Under the pieces are notes generated by a model, which worked only from the letters and a program-made list of their open reading frames with translations, did not search any database and was not told the DNA's origin. The position numbers and the translations under genes were made by a program. A DNA stretch of 64,000 bases from an uncultured Candidatus Saccharibacteria bacterium (lineage in GTDB: Bacteria; Patescibacteriota; Minisyncoccia; Phycocordibacterales; UBA5272), in NCBI GenBank assembly GCA_964635125.1, contig CAZWMQ010000001.1, positions 84,386 through 148,385 on the forward strand, given 5' to 3'. Each line of letters opens with the position of its first letter. Position 1 is the first letter of the stretch. Shown piece by piece: positions 1,309-60,685 of the stretch.

Positions 1309-1596
1309 TTAGTTATTTTGAGTTAGGGTAGGGGCTTCTTCTTTATTCTTAGATTTCCTAGCAATTAAGAAAATATAAATAATTTCTAAAATTCCTAAAG
1401 TATTTATTATTAAGAAGATTATAAATCAAACTTTATGATGATTACGAGCTGATTTTCAGAGAGCAATACCTTTTCAGATTAAGCTCCATATAATTAAGCA
1501 AATTACAATTATTAAGACGATTAATCCATATTGCTTAAAAAGATTAATTGTTAAATTCGCAGGTCCAGTTGAGAGATTGCTTGTTAGATTGTTCAT
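1309..1596 (-). CDS. Small hypothetical membrane protein (95 aa; 3 in-frame UGA-Trp codons, so absent from the ORF track)
   Basis: Continuous reading frame under table 4 with a hydrophobic segment; no homology recognised. Confidence 0.3.
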
Positions 1597-1639: not shown

Positions 1640-1865
1640 AAGACACAAATACAAGTTTTAGGGCGGTTATATTTTTCTTGAAGCTTGTATCTTGGACGGG
1701 GAGTTGGTCACCACACATAGTCGTCATTTATTCCTCCTTGTGTCGCGACCCCGCTTCGCCGTCTCGCTCATTTTATTCGCGACTTCGTAGACGGCTCAGT
1801 TCAACCCCACCTCTCCCAATAAAATAAATCACTCGAAGCCTTGCTCCGAGTTCATTATTTTATAG
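1640..1865 (-). ncRNA. Conserved structured element immediately 3' of ssrA (copy 1 of a 2-member family; see 52270-52476)
   Basis: Shares the ataaaataatgaRctcgga...gagtgatttattttat hairpin, nested hairpins and a terminal tggtgacc + degenerate tRNA-3'-like end with the element 3' of tRNA-Ser. Confidence 0.4.
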
Positions 1866-2251
1866 TGGAAGTGGGGGGAGTCGAACCCCCGTGCAGATAG
1901 AGATTGTAAATGAGTCTAGTTTCATACTTAATTTTTTAAATTGTCGGCTAAATCTATTAAATTAAGAAAATAATTTAGCTTAGTTTTTTAGAGTTTCAAA
2001 ATTTTTAAAGAAAACTAATTTAAAAATTTCTACACACATTCTTTATAATATAGAAATCTTTACGATGTGTAAATAAAGAATCTATACCAAGGTGGCTTAA
2101 TTAAGCGGCCACTGGAGCGAAATTCGCCGAGAAAGGCGAAAGGATCGCTTTTGCAATTTTGTTTGCAATATATTTGAAAAGATTTAACGATTTATTTTCA
2201 TTATCGGAAACCACATTTACAAAGATCTAAGTGTCAAATCCTGACACTCCC
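1866..2251 (-). ncRNA. ssrA: tmRNA (transfer-messenger RNA)
   Basis: 5' gggagtg pairs with 3' cacttcc+A, with G3:U70 Ala identity; T-arm gggggttcgactccccc; internal tag ORF GCA AAC AAA ATT GCA AAA ... GTG GCC GCT TAA giving ANKIAKAILSPFSANFAPVAA* (minus 2166..2101); 386 nt; smpB nearby. Confidence 0.85.
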
Positions 2252-27856: not shown

Positions 27857-28804
27857 ATGGAAGAAAATAAAAATAATAAATTATCAGCTAAGTTTTTCTT
27901 TTTAACTTTAGGGAATATTATAAGTTTAATTACTATTATAATTACAGCAATTAATTTATTATTCTCTTTACTGGATAGATTTATTCCAGATGTTTTAACC
28001 GATGCATATGTTTATGGTTATAACTCTAATCTATATACTAATCTACAAACTCCATTAGCAATATTGATAATATTTTTCCCAATATTTTTTATTTTAGCTT
28101 ATTACTTCCGCACACATTTAAATAATTCTTTAAATAAAAAAGAATCTGGATTTCTAAAATGGGTGATTTATTTTATAATTTTCTTAGCCTCACTAACAAT
28201 AATTATTGATTTAATAACCTTGGTGCATTATTTTATTTCGGGGGAAATTACTTTAAGATTTATTTATAAAGTCGTCGGAGTGATTATATTATCTAGTATA
28301 ACTTTAACTTATTATATATCTTTATTAAAAGATAAAAAGAAAAATATTTTAGTTGAAGTTAAAGACTTTAATATTCGAAAGATATTAGGATTGATTTCTT
28401 TCTTAATCATCCTATCTTTAATTGTCATAACTTTTATAATTATGGGAAGCCCAAAGACGCAAAGGCAATATAGATTAGATAATTTAAAAGTTGATAATCT
28501 ACAATCTATCGAAGCTAATATTGATAATTATTATACTGAAAAGGGAGCATTGCCAGCGAAACTTACTGATTTAGAAATTAATTACAATCCCAATATAATC
28601 TATGATCCAATAAATAAAGAAATATTTAAATATGTAGTTGTAGATAAGACTAATTATAAATTATGTGCTAATTTCTTAACAGAAACTCCAGAGAAGACTG
28701 AATTATTAAGTAATAAATGGCATCACGGAGTAGGGGAAACTTGTTTTGATTTAAAAGTCAGCCAAATAAATAATAAATTATCTCCACAACCTCTAGATGA
28801 ATAG
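27857..28804 (+). CDS. Hypothetical polytopic membrane protein
   Basis: 315 aa, multiple TM helices plus C-terminal soluble domain. Confidence 0.35.
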   Translation: MEENKNNKLSAKFFFLTLGNIISLITIIITAINLLFSLLDRFIPDVLTDAYVYGYNSNLYTNLQTPLAILIIFFPIFFILAYYFRTHLNNSLNKKESGFLKWVIYFIIFLASLTIIIDLITLVHYFISGEITLRFIYKVVGVIILSSITLTYYISLLKDKKKNILVEVKDFNIRKILGLISFLIILSLIVITFIIMGSPKTQRQYRLDNLKVDNLQSIEANIDNYYTEKGALPAKLTDLEINYNPNIIYDPINKEIFKYVVVDKTNYKLCANFLTETPEKTELLSNKWHHGVGETCFDLKVSQINNKLSPQPLDE

Positions 28805-29224: not shown

Positions 29225-31405
<2,181 letters not shown>

Positions 31406-33397: not shown

Positions 33398-35155
33398 TTA
33401 TTTTTTATTTCTTACTTCCTTCCCCAACTTCTCCATTAACTCCTCCATACTTAAATTAAATTTCTCACCACTCAAACTCTCTAAACTAACTTTATTTTCA
33501 TCGATCTCTTTATCTCCAATTACAATTCAATATGGATATTTCATATTTTTAGCATAGCGGACTTTCTTTCCAAGATTATCTTTATTGTCGGCTAACTCCA
33601 CTCGAAAATTCTGAGCTTTTAACTTTTCATAAACTTGATTCGCATATTTGTTATGCTTCTCTAAATTAACCGGAATAATTGAGAGTTGAATAGGGGCAAT
33701 TCAGAGTGGAAATTCTCCAGCTACATGTTCAATATAAACTGAGAGAAATCTCTCCAAACTTCCAGCAATCGCACAATGTATCATGACCGGTCGATCTCTC
33801 TTACCTTCTTCATTTACATATTCTAATTCTAAATTCTCTGGTTGTATAAAGTCTAATTGCACAGTGGCAACTTGATGTTCTCGTCCAATCGCATCACTGG
33901 CCATGAAGTCTATCTTAGGTCCATAAAAAGCTGCTTCACCCTCGCCATCAATATAATTCTCCCCAACTCTTTTCTCTAGTAGAGCTTTAATGGCTCCTTC
34001 GGCTTTCTCTCAAGTCTCTAGATTACCTTTGAACTTAGGATCATTGTCACGACGAGAGAATCTATATTTTAAATTCGTAAAGTTAAATGTCTTATAAAAT
34101 GTCTCAATTAAGTCTCAAAGTTGATTAACTTCACTTTCAATTTGAGACTCACGACAAAAGATATGAGCATCATCTTGAGTAATTGATAAGACACGAGATA
34201 ACCCACTTAATTCTCCAGATTGTTCATCACGATAAACCATGGTGGTCTCTGAATATCTAATTGGTAATTCTTTATAACTCCTTAACTCTGAAGCATAAAT
34301 CTGGGCATGGTGAGGACAATTCATCGGCTTCATACAGAGTATATGTCCATCTCTTGTTTCAATTTTAAATAAATCCTCTTGATACTTCTCTCAGTGACCA
34401 GATTTAACATATAAATCTTTCTTAGTTAGATGTGGAATAGTTACTCCTTGATAACCATCTTTAGCTCTTAATTCTTGGACGAAATTATCAACTACTTTTC
34501 TTAAAATAGTTCCCTTTGGTGTTCAAAGTGGAAGTCCTGGTCCAACTAAGTCTGAGAAAATAAACAATCCTAATTCTTTCCCCAAGATACGATGATCTCT
34601 TTTTTTGGCCTCCTCGATCTGAACTTTATAATTCTCTAACTCTTCTTTATTTTGAAATGCTAGCCCATAGACACGAGTAAGCATTTTATTTTTCTCATCA
34701 CCTCGCCAATAAGCTCCAGCTGTATGGGTAATTTCAAAGCTATTAATATCAATCTCTTTTAAATCCTCGACATGTCCACCACGACAAAGATCGGTAAAGT
34801 CTTGAATAGTGTAAAGTGTGATCTTTTCGCCACGAGAGACAATCTCTTCAATTAATTCTAATTTATATGGGTTATTTTTAAAATAATTCTCAGCTTCCGT
34901 CTCATTAATTTCTTGATGGGAGAAAGTTCCGCCTTGTTTAATCTTCTCTCTCATCAACTTAGTTAATTCTTGAAAGTCCTCAGGAGTGTTAGGTTTATTA
35001 TCAGTTACGAAATCAATGTCATAGTAAAATCCATTTTCAATCGCTGGACCTAAAGTTAAGAGGACTTGTGGATATTTTTCAATTATTACACTAGCTAAAA
35101 TGTGAGCTAAGGTATGTCTAATATGAGCTAATTTTTCTTGATCTTCTTTTGACAT
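33398..35155 (-). CDS. thrS: Threonyl-tRNA synthetase lacking the N-terminal TGS domain (585 aa; at least 5 UGA-Trp codons)
   Basis: Alignment to E. coli ThrRS: [33 protein letters not shown]; three track ORFs on one frame. Confidence 0.9.
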
Positions 35156-38215: not shown

Positions 38216-39154
38216 ATGGCAATTGGCAAATCTTTATACACCGAGCAGTCAAATAATGTTTTTAAGACTTGGCTTTATATGGCAGTGTTTGTTTTCTTAT
38301 TTGCTATTTTAGGGCTTTTTGTTGCTTATTATTATGGGAATGTTAGTATTTTCTATATCGCTATAATTATTGCTTTAATAATGAATATCTATTCATATTG
38401 GAAAAGTGATAAATTAGTCTTATCTATGTCTGGAGCGAAAGAGATTGCGAATAAATCTCAATATTCAGAGTTATGGAATGTTGTTGAAAATATAGCGATC
38501 ACCGCTGGATTACCAATGCCAAAGTTATATATTATTGACGATCCAATTCCGAATGCTTTCGCTACCGGAAGAAATAAAAATCATGCGGCGATCGCTGTTA
38601 CCTCAGGACTTGCTTCAATGTTAAATAAAAGTGAACTGGAAGGAGTGATTGCTCATGAGATGAGCCATATTGGGAATCGGGATATTTTAATCTCTACAAT
38701 CATTGTTGTCATGGTTTCAGCAGTAACATTTCTTTCGCAAATCTTTTTTAGATTTAGTATATTTGGTGGTGGAAGAAGTAATGATAGAGATTCAAATAGC
38801 GGAGGATTTCTAATGGTTGCTGGATTTATCGTAATGCTAGTCTTAGCGCCACTAGCAGCCACAGTTATACAATTAGCGATATCACGAAAGCGAGAATTCT
38901 TAGCGGATGCGGATGGAGCAATCTTAACTCGTTATCCAGAAGGGCTCGCTTCGGCCTTAGAAAAGATTTCCCAATTTAATCAACCTTTAAAGAAGGCTAA
39001 TAATGCTACGGCTCATTTATATATTGTAAATCCAATGGGACTTAATTCTAATAATATAGATGGAAAGAAAAAGACAAATTGGCTTACAAGATTATTTATG
39101 ACTCACCCTCCAATTGAAGAAAGAATTAAAGCTCTAATGGGGATGAAAGAGTAA
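38216..39154 (+). CDS. htpX: Heat-shock M48 protease HtpX
   Basis: 312 aa; TMs, HEMSHIGNRD (HExxH), C-terminal FMTHPPIEERI. Confidence 0.9.
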   Translation: MAIGKSLYTEQSNNVFKTWLYMAVFVFLFAILGLFVAYYYGNVSIFYIAIIIALIMNIYSYWKSDKLVLSMSGAKEIANKSQYSELWNVVENIAITAGLPMPKLYIIDDPIPNAFATGRNKNHAAIAVTSGLASMLNKSELEGVIAHEMSHIGNRDILISTIIVVMVSAVTFLSQIFFRFSIFGGGRSNDRDSNSGGFLMVAGFIVMLVLAPLAATVIQLAISRKREFLADADGAILTRYPEGLASALEKISQFNQPLKKANNATAHLYIVNPMGLNSNNIDGKKKTNWLTRLFMTHPPIEERIKALMGMKE

Positions 39155-39180
39155 GTTTAGGATTTTTTGGGAATCTCTTT
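39135..39180 (+). repeat. Direct repeat copy 1 (htpX 3' end: aagaaagaattaaagctctaatggg...) matching 45925-45970 with 3 mismatches
   Basis: About 46-bp near-identical direct repeat seen in the sequence. Confidence 0.8.
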
Positions 39181-39323: not shown

Positions 39324-42300
39324 ATGGGTAATAGTAGAGCAAGAACTAATAAAAAAAGAACCCTAAGAGAAATTATAACTTCTAAGATGAGTAAAGAGGA
39401 TAGAGATGTCTTAATTAAGCGAGAAGCGGAAGAGTATTTAGCTATTTGTAGAGACGAATCTTGCCATAAGGTAGTTAAACAAGTAAAGAAGTCTAAGCAT
39501 TTTTTAAAATGAGCTATTAAACTAATCTTACCTGATTTTTTAGTTGGACATCCTAATCTTTTTGATAATTTCCGAACTCTACGAACCCATCCACAATTCC
39601 ATGCTTTTCGGAGAGCGATAATTGCTTGGATAATATTTACTGTAATAGTCAGCTCATCCGGAATCTATTCTTTAATTAATGCTAAAAAAAGTAGTGCTCA
39701 AGTACAATTTCAATTTAAAACTGGATATTATTTAGGGGCCGGAGATGGAACAGTCAAACATATTACAGGCTTAGGATTTAAGCCGGAGGTCTTGATAATA
39801 AAAGCTGATACTACAGCAGGATATGCAATATTTAAAACAGCCTCTATGTCAAGTGGAGAATATGCTTATTTTGCTGCTTCAGCAGATAATGTAGAGAATC
39901 AAATAACTTTTGATGACGATGGTTTTACTTTACAATTAAATGGAGATGTCAATGCTAATAATGTTATTTATAAATATATTGCCTTCGCCGGCAATGATTG
40001 TTCTTCATCTGGAGTAATGTGTTACGGTTCTTATAATGGAAATTATGTAGTCGGGTCACCTAATCAGACTATAAATACAGGATTTAGTCCTGATCTTGTA
40101 ATTGTAAAACGTACCATAACTACAGCCGCTAATTTTCTAACTTCTGTTATGCCAGATTCTGGAGCAGGATATGCTAGTTTTTTCACAGCTACGGCCGACG
40201 ACACTACTGCTAATTATTTTCCGGCGAATTCCATTAGCAGTAATGGGTTTACGGTGGGTCCATCTAACAATACTTATGCCGGATTATTTTATTATTTAAC
40301 TTTTAAAAAAGGTGCTGGGATTTTAGATGTCGGAAGTTATACTGGTAATGGAACTAGTCAAACCATAAGTCCTCCATTAATGTCTCAAGTTACTCCAAAC
40401 TTCGTACTTACTAAAGCTACCACTGCAGTTTTGCCTGTATTTAATACGACTCAAAGCTACGGTGACTATTCAAGTGTTTTATCTAATGCTGCTAATGTTA
40501 CTGGAGCTATAAAGCAATTAATTCCAGGCGGTTTTTCATTAGGTAATAGTAGCTATTCTAATAGTAATAATACAGGTTATTGATATTTTAGTTTTGCTGG
40601 TGGGAACATGCCGGTAGCCAACGGTTCATTTTTAATGAAAGCAGGATCATATGTTGGAGATGGCAGTGCTAACCGTACAATTGGAGATATAGGATTCACC
40701 CCTGATTTAGTTATTGTAAAATCTGACGGACCAGATTATGCAATTTGAAGCACATCCATGGATTATAATTTTTCTCATTATTTTTCAGTAGCCTTAGCTG
40801 GCATAACCAATGCTATTTTAGGTATGGTTAATGGCGGATTTACCATAGGATCACATTCTACAGTTAATACTAATGGTACAACTTATCATTATGAAGCTTT
40901 TGGAAATGCTTCAACCCCATTTGCAGGTGGGAGAGCGGCTGATTTTGTAATCGGAGCTTATACTGGTAATGGTTTAGTGAGAGATATAACTAATTTACCA
41001 GTTAGTCCTGACATGGTGATGATAAAAGAAAACGGTACAGATGCAGCGACTGTTTGGTCTTCAACTATAATGGCGACAGGGACAACAGCTTTCTTATCAG
41101 CAACAACTAACGATGTTTCTGGAAATTTAATCAAACAGATTAATTCAGATGGATTTTCTTTAGGTACTAATAATATTGTAAATCGATCTGGTTATGTAAA
41201 TAATTTCTTTGCCTTTTCAAAAAGTGCTGCTTTTAATATAGGATTATATACAGGTTCTGGCAGTCAGCAAGATATAACTACTACCGATGGAAATACTGCC
41301 ATAGGGTTTACCCCAGATTATGTCATAACTAAAAGAAGTACCAATGTTGATCCTGCTCATCGATCAAGCGCAATAGATTTAGGAAATACGACTCAGTATT
41401 TTAAAAATGTGGCTAATTTTAATAATGGTATTACTGATATTATTAATGGAGGATTTAGAGTGAGTACTGACGCCACCGTTAATACAAATAGTGGAACTTA
41501 TTATTTTTTTGCTTGAAAGGCTAGTACAGCTACAACTTCACCAGCAACACCAGTTAATGTTTCTCCACCTGATAATGCTTCTGATATTGGTTTAAACGAC
41601 ACTTTACAAGCTTCTGCTTATACAGATTTAAATCCTCAATTAGGTACTATGTGACAAATAGCAGATGATCCAAATTTTAATTCTTTAGTTTGAAGTCGAA
41701 CAACAAATAACGCTGAAACAAGTATTGTTATTAATTCTAGTAATGGAGTGTTTTCCGGTTCTTTAAATGGAAAACAAAAGCTTAAACACAACACTAATTA
41801 TTATTGAAGAGTAAAGTATTCTAATAGTGTGTATTCAGCATGATCGACCTCAACCTCTTTTAAAACTTTAGCAATAGATAAACCAACTAATATTTCTCCA
41901 ACAGATCAAGAAATTATTAGCACATTGAGTCCACTTCTAAGCGCTTCTACTTTTTCTGATCCAGAAGTAGGGGATACAGCAAATTTAGTTGAATGACAAA
42001 TAGATACTAAGATTAATTTTGACTCACCAATTTACGATTCGGGATCTATTAGCTATAATAATTCTATAACAATTCCAGACGCGACTCTTTCTGATAGGAC
42101 GGTATATTATTGAAGAGTTAGGTATTTGGATTCTGATAATCAATGATCTGATTATTCAACACCTACCAGATTCTTAACTTCTAAAGAAGCAGAAGTCTCG
42201 GTCAATCCTCTTTTCGGAGGGAATGTAGTTAATCAAGGAGACCAGGTAAAAATTGATGCCCAAGTTAAGACAGTAGATGGTTTAGCAGTTAATGATGCTA

Positions 42301-45300
42301 CAACGACAATTAGTATTTATAATCCTTCTGGTGCGAAGATTATCAATAATGAGACGATGAATTACATCGCATCATCTAGTGGTATTTATCGATATCCATT
42401 TACTATTCCAAATATTGATGGAAGTTATTTGTATGAAATATCTGCAAAGACTGGTATATATAATGGACTAGGAGCAGCAAATTTTGAAGTTAGAAATACA
42501 GCACAAGATATAGCTGATACAAAATCTACAGTGGTAAATAATAACAATCTAATTACTGACACTAAAAATATTGCCTCAAATACTCAAAATCTTACAAATA
42601 ATATAAAGACTACGGTGGAAGATACTCAAAACATTGCTTCCAATACTCAAAATCTCGCGAATAATATAAAAACCACTGTAGATGACACACAGTCTATCGC
42701 TTCTTCTACGAATTCTCTAACTTCTTCTATTAAAAATACAGTGGAGAGTAATAAAGCCAACCTAGATATTTTAGTTGGAGCTTTTATTGTGACTCAAGGA
42801 TCGGTGAATGACGCTTCTCCCACAACTAATTCTTTTATCTCTTCTCTGACGAATTCTACTGATAATTTTTATAAAAATTCAGTCTTAACTTTTACTTCTG
42901 GAGTCTTAGACGGACAAAGTAGAAGAGTCAGTGATTATAGTGGGACTACTAAGAGATTCACTTTAGATCCTGCTTTGACTAATGCACCAGTTACGGGAGA
43001 TACTTTTACTATCACTACCCAAAATGTCCGAGTCGAAGAACAAGTTGCTGATCACGAGGCCTCATCTTCAGCTTTTCGAGCTGACACTACTTCTCGTTTA
43101 ACAAGTATTGAAGGTAAAGTAGATTCAATTATCTCAACTTTAAATACTGTAGATTCTAATTTAGATGATGCTCAAAGTATGCTTAATCAAGTAAGACAAG
43201 CTCAAAATAATAATTATACTATTGAGTATTCTGATATATCTAAAATTCAAGCTGGGACCACTTATCGTGCTAAATTAACCATTTTAGATTTTCAAGATAA
43301 GCCAGTTGATGCTTCTTCCACTCCGTCTGTGATAATTTATGATCCTACACGAGCAACAGCTACAGGTACTCCAGCCACTATGACTAGGCTCTCAACTGGA
43401 GTTTATGAATATACTTATATCACTAGTACTGATGCCGTGGCTGGATTGTGAGAGAGTGTAGCTACAATTAATATAAACGGAGAAAATATTACAAAGAATG
43501 ATTATTTTGAAGTAGCCGGAGCTCCTGCTCAGGTGTTTATTAATAGTATAAGTAATACTAATATCCCTAATATTTCAGCTGAAACAACAATTACCAACGA
43601 AGGAGGGGGAGAATATGAATATCATTATGAATGATGTGTAGTCTCAACTGAAAACAATCCTTGTGGAGGAAGTGATGATATTTATTATGCTTCCGGAGCT
43701 AAGCTTATATCACCTGGACAGAGTTTTACTCCAACTTTGACCGCCACAGTCAATCAGATTGGTGATTATTGGTTTAAGTTAGTCGTATATTATGGTACAG
43801 AAGTAAGTGCAGCTTCAAGAACATTTACAGCCACTAATAATATAAATAACAATGGTAATAGTAGTGGTAGCAGTGGAGGGGGTGTCTCTTATAATCCCGC
43901 TAGCCAAACAGATATATATCAAGAATTAACAGATATTCATAATCAATTAGATATAAATTCTCAAAAGCTTTCGGCCACCTTAGATAGTCTAGGAATTATT
44001 AATCCAGTTTTAAAAAATCTTTTAGAAGTAGTTAGTTTAAGTAGTAATAATTTAAAAGACACCCAGAATAAAGTTGCCGATCTTAAAGCTATTTCAGCAA
44101 CTATTAGACAAATTGTCGATGGAGGAGCAACTACACCAACTGTAGAGACCTATATGAAATTTAATTCTGTTGAAATTCATTTTCTTATTACCAATCCTTC
44201 AGATGAAGCTCAGACAGTAAAATTTAAAGCTTTCTTGCCAGCTGAAGCTAAACCAGAAAATATAATGAATTTAGACGGATTACAAATAGACTATGATACA
44301 AATGCTAATAGTTATTATGTTCACGGGGATATTTATCTAAAAGCAAAAGAAAGTATTGCCAAGGAAGTCGAGATGAAAGATATCTGACAATTTTCTAAAG
44401 AAGAAATACAATCTATCAGAGACCAAGTCTCAGAATTAATTGGATTATTAAAAAAATCTCAATATGAAACTGATGGAGTATTATTAAAAAATAGTATAGA
44501 ATCAACATTAAATATTATTACAAATAAACAAGACGAGAGTTATTCCTCCCCTCAAGAACACATTGTTACATTTAGAGAAAATCAAGAGAGAATGCTAGAA
44601 GTTAAAAATAATTTAGAGAAATTAAAGTCTTTAGTTTCAGAGGCTAATAATTCTAAAAGTATAGTTGGAAATATTGGAGGTATACAAACTTTTGCTACCT
44701 GAGGAATTATTTTAGCTATTGTCTTTGGATTCGCTTTACTGGCTGTTGTGATATTTGCTATGTGAAGGCATCAAACCATTTTAGCTACACAAGCTTTAGG
44801 TTTAAGTAAATTAGATACAGATAAGCATTTTGGTAAGAAAGTATTTGATAAATACTCAAATGTAGATATTAATGAGGAGGCAGGATATTTTCATCAACAT
44901 AAGTCTATTAAAAAGATAGTCTTAGTTATTATTTTATCCTCAATGATTATAGTATTTGGTATTTTTGCTTCCAGGTATATATATAGATTTAAAGATATAT
45001 CATTTTTGAAAAATATAAAAGTAATCGATGATAAAGTTAATGTAAATAACACTTTAATTAAAGAAGAAGATAAAGGCGATACTAGTGTTCCCACAAGCGA
45101 GGAAAAAGCTAATACTAATTTAGCTCAAAATGATTTAGATAATATAAGCTCTAACAATACTGATTTATTGGAAATATTAAATACTGAAACGGGCTGACTA
45201 AATGTTAGAAGTGAACCATCTTCTAAATCTGATTTAATCAATAAAGTATATCCACAAGAGAAATATCAGTATATAGACAAAAAAGATAATTGGTATAAAA

Positions 45301-45362
45301 TTATATTAAAAGATAAATCTACAGGTTGGGTCTATGATAAATATGTTAAAATCACCAATTAA
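39324..45362 (+). CDS. Giant cell-surface protein (about 2012 aa) with N-terminal cytoplasmic basic segment and TM, tandem beta-rich repeats, FN3/Ig-like segments with conserved YYWRV, 21-aa tandem repeats, two C-terminal TMs and a C-terminal bacterial SH3 (SH3b) domain; at least 15 UGA-Trp codons
   Basis: Six track ORFs (39324, 39792, 40758, 42357, 43737, 44943) and the intervening segments all lie in one frame with no TAA/TAG; UGA falls at W of repeated YY-W-RVKY/RVRY motifs; C-terminal WLNVRSEPS..GWVYDKYVKI SH3b-like. Confidence 0.75.
42567..42755 (+). repeat. Three tandem 63-bp (21-aa) repeats NIASNTQNLTNNIKTTVEDTQ inside the giant gene
   Basis: Direct tandem repetition at DNA and protein level. 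Confidence 0.8.
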
Positions 45363-45801: not shown

Positions 45802-45924
45802 TAGTCTGGAATAATTAAGCTTAAAGTCGAGGTCTAATATTGAAGCTGTGGTATACTTTATATACAATATAAATAAGACACAAAAGGAATAGTAGAGTCT
45901 TCAGGTATGAGATCGTTTTAAAAT

Positions 45925-45970
45925 TTAAGAAAGAATTAAAGCTCTAATGGGTATGAAAGAATAAGTTTAT
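45925..45970 (+). repeat. Direct repeat copy 2 (degenerate duplicate of the htpX 3' end)
   Basis: Matches 39135-39180. Confidence 0.8.
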
Positions 45971-52269: not shown

Positions 52270-52476
52270 TTTAAATTTTACGGAGAATGAGGGATTCGGT
52301 CACCAAATATATATTTTTATTTCATTTTTTCAAATTCATAAAAATATTATTTCTCGACCCCTGTATCAGAGCTTCACTCACTTCGTGAGTGGCTTCGCAA
52401 GCTCTTCAATTCGAATCCCGCACTCTCCGATAAAATAAATCACTCAGAATTTCATTCCGAGCTCATTATTTTATTG
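52270..52476 (-). ncRNA. Conserved structured element immediately 3' of tRNA-Ser (copy 2; paralog of 1640-1865), ending in a degenerate copy of the tRNA-Ser 3' end (ccgaatccctcattctcc)
   Basis: Shared 45-nt hairpin motif, nested hairpins, terminal tggtgacc; 19-nt imperfect repeat of the tRNA T-arm/acceptor. Confidence 0.4.
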
Positions 52477-52564
52477 CGGAGGATGAGGGATTCGAACCCT
52501 CGAACAGCTTTACACCGTTGCCACCTTTCCAAGGTGGTGCACTAGACCGCTATGCGAACCCTCC
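52477..52564 (-). tRNA. tRNA-Ser (anticodon GGA), type II with long variable arm
   Basis: Acceptor ggagggt/atcctcc+G, anticodon loop ttGGAaa, long variable arm, T-arm gagggttcgaatccctc. Confidence 0.8.
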
Positions 52565-54327: not shown

Positions 54328-54401
54328 GCTCCCATAGCTCAGTTGGTTAGAGCATACGGCTTATATCCGTAGGGTCCTTGGTTCGAGTCCAAGTGGGAGC
54401 A
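54328..54401 (+). tRNA. tRNA-Ile (anticodon UAU, reads AUA)
   Basis: Cloverleaf: acceptor gctccca/tgggagc+A, anticodon stem tacgg/ccgta, loop ctTATat, T-arm cttggttcgagtccaag. Confidence 0.75.
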
Positions 54402-54441
54402 CTTTGAGAATTTTTCTGAGTGAAGTAAAGATATTGTAGAT

Positions 54442-60607: not shown

Positions 60608-60681
60608 GCGCGATTAGCTCAGCTGGCTAGAGCATTCGACTGATACTCGAAAGGTCCCTGGTTCGATCCCAGGATCGCGCA
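60608..60681 (+). tRNA. tRNA-Ile (anticodon GAU)
   Basis: Acceptor gcgcgat/atcgcgc+A, anticodon loop ctGATac, T-arm cctggttcgatcccagg. Confidence 0.85.
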
Positions 60682-60685
60682 CATA

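Follow-up and report, generated by a model that had tools for sequence, protein, structure and literature searches.

What are the structured segments that follow the transfer-messenger RNA (tmRNA) gene ssrA and the tRNA-Ser(GGA) gene in an uncultured Candidatus Saccharibacteria bacterium, and how did they come to lie there? We analyzed a stretch of 64,000 nucleotides (nt) from this organism (contig CAZWMQ010000001.1, positions 84,386 to 148,385; hereafter the window), for which an original prediction had proposed miniature integrated elements or attachment-site scars of one family, or alternatively an undescribed non-coding RNA. All three features on which that proposal was built (a shared hairpin, T-arm-like segments with nested hairpins, and a terminal motif followed by an imperfect repeat of the host gene 3' end) were found where they had been placed behind both genes. 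We found that the two segments, here called elements A (behind ssrA) and B (behind tRNA-Ser), belong to a large, structured and strand-specific family that is linked to tRNA and tmRNA genes at their 3' ends, carries target-derived repeats, piles up at single genes, occupies its sites patchily and has no enzyme of its own. We propose, with a probability of about 0.5, that A and B are copies of small non-coding, non-autonomous modules, spread throughout Patescibacteria, that insert at the T-loop as a folded single strand with the help of an enzyme encoded elsewhere. That these are insertion modules in general is better supported than this specific folded single-strand mechanism.

Architecture of the two elements

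The DNA 3' of ssrA and that 3' of tRNA-Ser can be aligned along their entire length, and both have the same order: the intact 3' end of the gene (segment 1), a hairpin (L), an inverted copy of that end (segment 2), the hairpins P2 and P3, and a direct repeat of the end (segment 3) (Table 1). The host 3' end is present three times at each locus, once genuine, once inverted and once direct. The ranges originally given for the elements, 1640-1865 and 52270-52476, identified the correct loci, but the true elements are shorter; at locus A, 1640-1693 consists of spacer and the promoter-like region of the next operon and lies outside the element. The 45-nt hairpin is indeed near-identical in A and B, with a 3' half (GAGTGATTTATTTTAT) that is the same at 16 of 16 positions and upper stems that differ by compensating changes. 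L passes a terminator scan at both loci and looks like a bidirectional terminator; the near-match to its 3' half at 28161 in the window (≤3 mismatches) falls inside an open reading frame (ORF) and is due to chance. The segment that had been described as T-arm-like is present as well, but it is actually an antisense copy of the host 3' end: segment 2 is the reverse complement of that end from T-loop G53 to the discriminator (positions 53 to 73). What had been overlooked is both the origin of this 5' arm, as the tRNA 3' end in inverted form, and its pairing with the repeat that closes the element. Segments 2 and 3 form helix P1, which closes the junction, and segment 2 can alternatively pair with segment 1 across L.

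The element body after L folds as a three-way junction, and the nested hairpins with compensatory changes that had been claimed are upheld by the fold (z = -6.1 for A and -9.0 for B against dinucleotide shuffles) and by strong covariation. In both elements the base of P3 is the invariant GGGGUCGNG...GGUGACC, and the pattern GGGGTCGNGA...TGGTGACC has a chance expectation of 0.00 in the window. The terminal TGGTGACC is followed, as described before, by an imperfect repeat of the host 3' end, which matches at 19 of 21 positions for tRNA-Ser and is degenerate for tmRNA, where it is reduced to CAACTCCCC (8 of 9 positions against CGACTCCCC in the gene). The fold includes G.U pairs, and because these fix the polarity, the folded strand is the tRNA-sense strand. 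In the predicted fold of the integrated form, P3 stacks on P1 to give a continuous strand (...UUUGGUGAC|CGAAUCC...) that spans the presumed site of exchange, P2 bulging out of the opposite strand, and the circle that excision is predicted to yield (169-208 nt) is predicted to fold into three hairpins (z = -5.7 to -9.4).

Table 1. Positions of the host genes and of the parts of elements A and B in the window.
Feature	Position	Strand	Basis
ssrA (tmRNA), host gene of element A	1865-2251	(-)	ARAGORN; Rfam RF00023 at 80.8 bits
Segment 1 of ssrA, T-loop C56 to discriminator	1866-1883	(-)	
Element A, whole	1694-1864	(-)	
Element A, hairpin L: resembles a terminator; base rich in A/U, internal loop UGA/GA, stem of G+C	1819-1864	(-)	Fold; terminator scan; near-identity to B; stem covariation (helix 1)
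Element A, segment 2: tmRNA 3' end in inverted (complementary) orientation, diverged; supplies the 5' strand of P1, the closing helix	1799-1818	(-)	Local alignment to reverse complement of tmRNA 3' end; P1 pairs
Element A, hairpin P2, flanked by CUGA / GAAG (two pairs plus tandem G.A)	1758-1795	(-)	Fold; helix 3, compensatory change in 8/9 pairs
Element A, hairpin P3, conserved base GGGGUCGCG...UGGUGACC, invariant G.U included	1706-1752	(-)	Pattern; alignment; covariation (helix 4)
Element A, segment 3: degenerate direct repeat of the 3' half of the tmRNA T-loop/T-stem (CAACTCCCCGTCC); 3' strand of P1	1694-1706	(-)	Repeat comparison
tRNA-Ser(GGA), host gene of element B	52477-52564	(-)	ARAGORN; Rfam
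Segment 1 of tRNA-Ser, C56 to discriminator	52477-52494	(-)	
Element B, whole	52278-52474	(-)	
Element B, hairpin L	52430-52474	(-)	Fold; terminator scan; alignment with A
Element B, segment 2: tRNA-Ser 3' end in inverted orientation (CGGAGAGTGCGGGATTCGAA); supplies the 5' strand of P1	52410-52429	(-)	Local alignment score 30; fold
Element B, hairpin P2	52368-52405	(-)	Fold; alignment
Element B, hairpin P3 (GGGGUCGAG...UGGUGACC)	52298-52361	(-)	Fold; alignment
Element B, segment 3: tRNA-Ser 3' end repeated in direct orientation from C56 (CGAATCCCTCATTCTCCGTAA), 19/21; supplies the 3' strand of P1	52278-52298	(-)	Repeat comparison

Covariation and distribution of the family

An alignment of 13 sequences of the P2-bearing subtype with 37 consensus pairs contains compensatory changes in 26 of these pairs. 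Pairing is kept in 91% of the cells, compared to 72% in shuffled alignments and 37-47% in slid registers, and none of 500 shuffles reached the observed value of any measure. The covarying parts are L, P2 and upper P3, while the P3 base GGUCGC/GUGACC, including its G.U pair, is invariant in the alignment and conserved across the family in the form GGUCGNG/GGUGACC. P1 covaries too, as expected because it originates as a copy of the tRNA. The covarying structure shows that the interior of the element is under selection.

The search with a covariance model that had been suggested for finding further copies was run with a model (R1) built without hairpin L, at a cut-off of E ≤ 1e-3 outside the window. 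In the window, R1 scores 124 bits on B and 108 bits on A (both are training rows), and since the next best score is 10.7 bits, the window holds exactly two copies. Outside the window there are 55 matches, 54 of them in Patescibacteria loci and one in a contig from IMG/VR (L060; comparison loci are labelled L003, L005 and so on, one comparison genome J119, and a bare L denotes the hairpin). About 10 of the 55 are the model's own training copies and about 45 are new, and R1 gave no match in ~85 non-Patescibacteria loci that share the P3 pattern by chance. The reading that A and B share an intrinsic terminator and are otherwise alike by chance is refuted: L passes the terminator scan at both loci, but a model that excludes L still scores highly on both elements and finds the ~45 copies outside its training set, and the P3 pattern is not expected in the window by chance. 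Additional copies and covariation were found, and the similarity extends well beyond a shared terminator, so that each of the outcomes named in advance as refuting the prediction was absent.

The SmpB and IF3 proteins of the window have their nearest named relatives in Parcubacteria/Patescibacteria metagenome bins, and an almost identical element stands behind ssrA in a species with 80% SmpB identity (L003). Metagenome loci anchored on IF3 (L006, L009, L014, L017, L021 and L023) have an equal architecture behind tmRNA; the arms of the elements at tmRNA loci match the tmRNA of their own lineage. L025 carries a copy, with no tmRNA or tRNA detected within the scanned stretch. When orthologous loci were compared, as had been suggested, some were found to lack the element: among relatives at ~80% IF3 identity, the ssrA sites of L003 and L006 are occupied and that of L005 (80% IF3 identity) is empty, and L005 and L007 carry a terminator only. 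The L hairpin of this genome was not found in IMG/VR or in the GTDB representative genomes, and thus this species and its exact L are not in these two sets. We also noted that ARAGORN reports no tmRNA in relatives L005-L031 and L188, where the Rfam tmRNA model finds them in the scanned loci with 59-110 bits.

To a wider scan of IMG/VR and GTDB with a loose P3 pattern (the P3 base and the start of segment 3), G+C-rich genomes contributed much noise, from which true copies were sorted by an inverted-arm test and by R1. Among the GTDB matches listed are at least ~35 Patescibacteria loci (Saccharibacteria, Paceibacterota/Parcubacteria, Nomurabacteria, Adlerbacteria, Kaiserbacteria and unclassified bins), in which a tRNA gene on the same strand precedes the P3 motif by ~90-150 nt. 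The host genes comprise at least 22 tRNA kinds and tmRNA, among them Ser(GGA, UGA), Val(UAC, GAC), Arg(UCG, UCU, CCU), Gln(UUG, CUG), Leu(GAG, UAA, UAG), Gly(GCC, UCC), Tyr, His, Cys, Lys, Trp, Asp, Glu and Met. Among the tRNA genes in Patescibacteria element loci, 27 of 60 are followed by repeats of their 3' end in both inverted and direct orientation, a fraction that overstates the true frequency because the loci were selected for carrying an element, compared to none of 6 in non-Patescibacteria controls. The modules are ~130-210 nt long and non-coding, with no ORF, and fall into subtypes with P2, without P2 but with a small hairpin (loop CCUGCG/ACUGCU) between the acceptor and T-stem parts of segment 2, and with other inserts. 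Hairpin L and upper P3 are alike, and a CGAAG motif with tandem G.A pairs recurs. By eye, the P3 upper stem of element B is ~85-90% like the P3 of copies from other Patescibacteria lineages. The small hairpin within segment 2 (seen at L014, L017, L160, L183, L251, L254, L257 and L060) has a conserved loop, A(A/C)CUGC(G/U)U, that contains CTG; CTG is the start trinucleotide of the E. coli primase.

In 2.9 million IMG/VR viral contigs, the P2-type core pattern gave only two chance matches in coding regions. One contig classed as viral (L060:2850-3319(-), IMGVR_UViG_3300033463_005745) bears a tandem array of the small-hairpin subtype, with no intact tRNA in the stretch examined, and may be either a phage or a misclassified Patescibacteria fragment. 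In Rfam 15, only tmRNA and tRNA reach the gathering threshold in the window, and no family corresponds to the element; the best extra match at E ≤ 10 is tmRNA_permuted, which spans segment 1, L and segment 2 at 26.8 bits against a threshold of 47 and arises because of the inverted acceptor copy. The full-text literature that we searched contains no description of the family. The closest paper deals with tRNAs of Patescibacteria that are interrupted by group I introns at anticodon position 35/36 (PMC13011429). As it is absent from Rfam 15 and from the searched literature, the family is apparently undescribed, and widespread in candidate-phyla-radiation bacteria.

Insertion and competing explanations

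Several features of the copies are signs of insertion. The direct repeat always starts at C56, with a junction GGTGAC|CGAAT where the gene has GGTT|CGAAT, and it is perfect across 19-32 nt in about 12 copies. At L193, L229 and other loci an ordinary terminator follows segment 3, from which it follows that L arrived with the insert. Repeats that reach beyond the tRNA end run into the remains of an older L (L218, L227, L246 and L256), single genes are followed by tandem complete elements that differ in subtype (L254, L257 and L256), and 5'-truncated remnants always retain the 3' strand of P3 together with segment 3 (L185, L226, L234, L210 and L251). In genome J119, which has copies at several tRNA genes, two P3 hairpins are identical and a third differs by 1 nt (by eye), whereas the arms are wholly different among copies and specific to each tRNA. 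Two loci hold a gene between the tRNA gene and a unit of L, segment 2, P3 and segment 3: a HAD hydrolase gene at L266 (4180-4815(+)), where the unit is bounded by 21 nt of tRNA 3' end repeated without mismatch, and a DUF695 gene at L230 (2994-3440(-)). These units may be gene cassettes. At L251:6800-7800(+), tRNA-Leu(UAG) is followed by two elements, an opposite-strand ORF of 100 amino acids (aa) and a 5'-truncated element; the first and last elements share an identical P3 and flank another copy and the small ORF. A short-read contig from the same organism (L278, Logan SRR11845633) ends exactly at the tRNA-Ser/element boundary, near window position 52476, as would be expected of a repeat, and the near-identical L hairpins probably act as a repeat that breaks assemblies. 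With dozens of copies, direct repeats, tandem pile-ups and both occupied and empty sites, the idea of one element family at tRNA and tmRNA sites has held. As a separate observation, L009:1838-2035 and L025:170-500 each have two units in succession, behind tmRNA at L009 and with no tmRNA or tRNA detected in the scanned stretch at L025; the arms of the second units (AGCGGAATCGAA and GATCCGCT) mismatch the adjacent tmRNA, and a linker, GTGACCGAAAGCGTACTCGCGGTTCCG, is common to both loci.

The suggestion that A and B are attachment-site scars has not fared as well. On this account, the copies would be decayed attL-attR remains left after the loss of larger, integrase-bearing islands or prophages in tRNA and tmRNA genes, a history to which the direct repeats of the tRNA 3' end and the two copies separated from their tRNA by one gene would conform. 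Williams is said to have described in 2002 that direct repeats of the tRNA 3' end from the T-loop on are the classic signature of tRNA-integrating islands. However, dozens of independent loci agree in size and architecture, the interior has not decayed but forms a conserved, covarying structure under selection, and the viral contigs contain no P2-type core apart from chance matches. Nor was an integrase seen nearby: the 25 most frequent Pfam families (each with at least 2 ORFs) among 146 ORFs of at least 170 aa in 40 element loci include no integrase, transposase or reverse transcriptase, a count that covers these loci and in which singletons would not show. We consider scars very improbable. 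Hardly better placed is the idea of a by-product of template switching during replication or repair, in which the palindromic T-loop (TTCGAA) and a terminator hairpin would prompt fold-back copying and leave a functionless direct-inverted-direct triplication. Such an arrangement around a hairpin is what fold-back synthesis and realignment would be expected to give, and templated quasi-palindrome correction could keep segment 2 matched to segment 1. This explanation does not account for the conserved, covarying P2/P3 core and L that are common to phylum-level lineages, or for the fixed junctions GAAC|UGAG and GGUGAC|C56, and at L193 and L229 L is clearly not the host terminator, as the original one follows segment 3; we regard it as quite improbable.

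We propose instead that the module enters the gene between T55 and C56. It would supply a replacement 3' end and hairpin L, with the original 3' end pushed downstream as the direct repeat, and the gene would keep working because the module brings these two parts. The active form would be the folded single strand of tRNA polarity, in which P3 stacked on P1 would rebuild a duplex copy of the region from T-loop to acceptor beside a conserved stem, and the conserved P3 base would be a candidate binding site for a recombinase or nuclease encoded elsewhere in the genome. A single-strand exchange would be expected to produce the order of segment 1, L, segment 2, core and segment 3 if the gene's partner were a circle in which the two inverted arms had folded across L to form a double-stranded copy of the target. 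A folded-arm exchange of this kind is used by the attP(+) hairpin of the CTX phage. Excision between segments 1 and 3 would give a circle of ~170-210 nt with three hairpins, and repeated entry at one gene would give tandem arrays, in which some units include a gene. Taken further, and with considerably more reserve, the family might represent an unrecognised mobile system of Patescibacteria, in which protein-less modules of ~130-200 nt and single-gene cassettes enter the T-loop of essentially any tRNA or tmRNA gene, either in an integron-like manner via a folded single-stranded site that holds both target strands, or as a circle the size of a viroid that has DNA copies in the genome, with an enzyme of the host or from a distant source moving them in either case.

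A circle of RNA rather than DNA is the subject of a further explanation, according to which the stretch from C56 of segment 1 to the base before C56 of segment 3 would be removed from a read-through pre-tRNA like an intron, possibly circularised in a viroid-like manner, leaving a normal tRNA and spreading via an RNA intermediate. The T-loop is a known intron site in tmRNA genes, as mentioned for Bacillota (PMC13011429, citing Williams 2002), the excised unit (169-208 nt) would be a highly paired three-hairpin circle, and the 5'-truncated copies look like aborted reverse transcription. But the gene is already complete without splicing, Rfam gives no group I, group II or ribozyme match even at E ≤ 10, the hammerhead-like CUGA...GAA...C junction is without G8 and A9, no reverse transcriptase recurs nearby and Patescibacteria reportedly are without group II introns (PMC13011429), all of which makes this explanation improbable. 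Individual identities were also rejected. A hammerhead ribozyme is not supported, as the junction CUGA-[P2]-GAAGC ... GAC|C is without G8 and A9 of the CUGANGA ... GAAA core and has no Rfam match, and a group I intron is not supported either, with no RF00028 match even at E ≤ 10 and a gene that is complete without splicing. Known group I introns are longer than this element. Group II domain V, k-turn, retron, bridge RNA and TnpB/IscB guide RNA were ruled out by sequence or by a missing partner gene, an L20 leader by the position of element B, which is not beside ribosomal genes, and a miniature inverted-repeat transposable element by the fact that the L side and the GGTGAC side are not mutual inverted repeats, the inverted repeat being internal and target-derived.

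The main rival to our proposal is a processed tRNA-trailer RNA. Read-through from the tRNA or tmRNA promoter, followed by cleavage by RNase P and 3' processing, would release an RNA of ~130-150 nt with P2 and P3, which could have a role in tRNA metabolism, as a decoy or in protein binding. Several observations fit this explanation: P1 copies the acceptor-T-stem stack of the host tRNA, covariation is strong and the invariant G.U sets the strand as tRNA-sense, the core sequence is conserved among distant lineages, tandem G.A and GNRA-like motifs recur, and in some subtypes the small hairpin (CCUGCG/ACUGCU loop) sits exactly at the junction of acceptor and T-stem. The antisense arm is also perfect against the real tRNA where the direct repeat has decayed, and L has no U-tract in the G+C-rich genome J119. 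Conversely, L is terminator-like in most copies, including both in the window, and because it precedes the element body, the body is less likely to be produced mainly as RNA. No convincing promoter of its own was found, and no Rfam family matches. The direct repeats run past the tRNA end into the trailer or old L, which pairing does not need, and neither the tandem arrays and 5'-truncated remnants nor the patchy occurrence (27 of 60 tRNA genes even in loci chosen for the element, and empty sites in close relatives) would be expected of such an RNA. We therefore consider a trailer RNA unlikely, though it deserves to be taken seriously.

Insertion by a folded single strand has its own difficulties. 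No recombinase or other mobilising enzyme was found among the frequent neighbour families of the 40 loci, and neither a circular junction nor an empty and an occupied allele of the same species was seen, contigs of the same species stopping at the tRNA-Ser/element boundary. The proposal does not account for the match of the inverted arm to each new tRNA, and tRNA-specific arms with near-identical cores in each genome could equally be old residents homogenised by gene conversion. At L275, L230 and L234, segment 2 is perfectly complementary to the real tRNA end although segment 3 has decayed, which hints at a function in pairing with the tRNA or at palindrome-templated correction. The tandem G.A motifs and GNRA-like loops suit a functional RNA as well as single-stranded DNA. 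The G+C content of the elements (0.36-0.71) appears to follow the host lineage, which suggests long-term residents rather than frequent transfers, and because the J119 copies, in a G+C-rich genome, have an L without a U-tract, L is not always a terminator.

Window setting, significance and comparison with known systems

The window has a G+C content of 29.5%, reads TGA as a sense codon and contains four plus-strand tRNA genes besides tRNA-Ser(GGA) (ARAGORN, Rfam). Across the window, for example in gyrB (29228-31405(+)), thrS (33398-35155(-)) and the ORF at 1309-1596(-), TGA apparently encodes tryptophan and not glycine. It stands at the W of what we take to be the GyrB motifs ..HHLIWEI.. and ..ELWETTMDP.., and where the DUF5652-like homologue of relative L006 has TGG; L003 shares the recoding, and L005 and L006 use TGG. 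This assignment appears unusual for a Parcubacteria-like lineage, as the known recoded Patescibacteria use UGA for glycine. A tRNA-Ile(UAU) occurs alongside tRNA-Ile(GAU) (54328-54402(+) and 60608-60682(+)), which suggests that AUA is decoded without lysidine/TilS. In addition, a 48-nt repeat with 94% identity (39112-39159 and 45922-45969) flanks an ORF of 2012 aa (39324-45362) that has 17 in-frame TGA codons and a 63-nt tandem repeat at 42558-42683.

If the modules are mobile, they would rank with the smallest known elements that insert site-specifically, and no earlier family would have been shown to combine a single conserved core with the use of many different tRNA genes; how an element without any protein obtains the 3' end of each new target in both direct and inverted form would then be a puzzle. 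Bacteria of the candidate phyla radiation, whose tiny genomes contain little non-coding DNA, carry the modules in abundance, and small gene cassettes may form around them behind tRNA genes. Assemblies break at tRNA genes because of them, and predictors of tRNA, tmRNA and genomic islands can be misled, as illustrated by the sub-threshold match to permuted tmRNA. The conserved P3/P1 junction offers a handle for finding the partner enzyme. If the trailer-RNA explanation were true, the family would constitute a large new class of tRNA-linked structured RNA.

Among known systems, intrinsic terminators and the RNAs of tRNA 3' external transcribed spacers resemble the element in lying directly 3' of a tRNA and in the G+C stem and U-tract of L (the U-tract being missing in J119), but a terminator leaves segment 2, P2, P3 and segment 3, with their covariation, unexplained. 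The non-autonomous derivatives of IS200/IS605 (PATE, REP/BIME) are likewise small, strand-specific and hairpin-based, are moved in trans, lie downstream of genes and have two related hairpins near their two ends, here L and upper P3. In contrast to the element, they have neither a long direct repeat nor a target copy, and they target a tetranucleotide and not a 20-nt tRNA segment; no Y1_Tnp occurs in the 25 most frequent neighbour families. Genomic islands and prophages that use tyrosine integrases of the T-loop crossover class also insert into the 3' part of tRNA and tmRNA genes and restore the gene with sequence that they bring, leaving a displaced 3' fragment as a direct repeat from the T-loop (19/21 in B) and tandem traffic at one gene. 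Such islands measure kilobases, compared to 130-210 nt here. The insert has no integrase (the gene-separated copies hold HAD and DUF695 genes only), the element has in addition a conserved folded core and the tRNA end in inverted form, and one family is found on at least 22 tRNA genes.

With integron attC cassettes the element shares a small imperfect palindrome that varies in sequence but is conserved in structure and that works, or in the element would work, as a folded single strand of one polarity, the occurrence of tandem units with or without an ORF at one entry site and with no recombinase inside (here the arrays and the gene-separated copies), and arms that hold AAC...GTT at the inverse-core and core positions. 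It differs in that entry is at the T-loop of many tRNA and tmRNA genes and not at one attI, and no IntI/integrase is among the frequent neighbour families of the 40 loci, where singletons would not show. The R''/R' consensus RYYYAAC/GTTRRRY does not apply, as the arms end in ..TCGAAC and start with G53-T54-T55-C56 and the repeat begins after GTT and not after G, and the stem is copied from the host tRNA, with a direct repeat of at least 19 nt and an additional three-way junction (P2, P3). The CTX-phage attP(+)/IMEX system differs in its target, which here is the tRNA T-loop, no dif-like sequence being seen by eye against dif consensus sequences, and in its body, which here is non-coding and ~100 nt long; an involvement of Xer is pure conjecture. 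Like the element, this system has no recombinase of its own and two inverted half-sites that fold into a hairpin mimicking the target duplex, and its integrated order of target hybrid, loop, inverted arm, body and target hybrid corresponds to that of segment 1, L, segment 2, core and segment 3.

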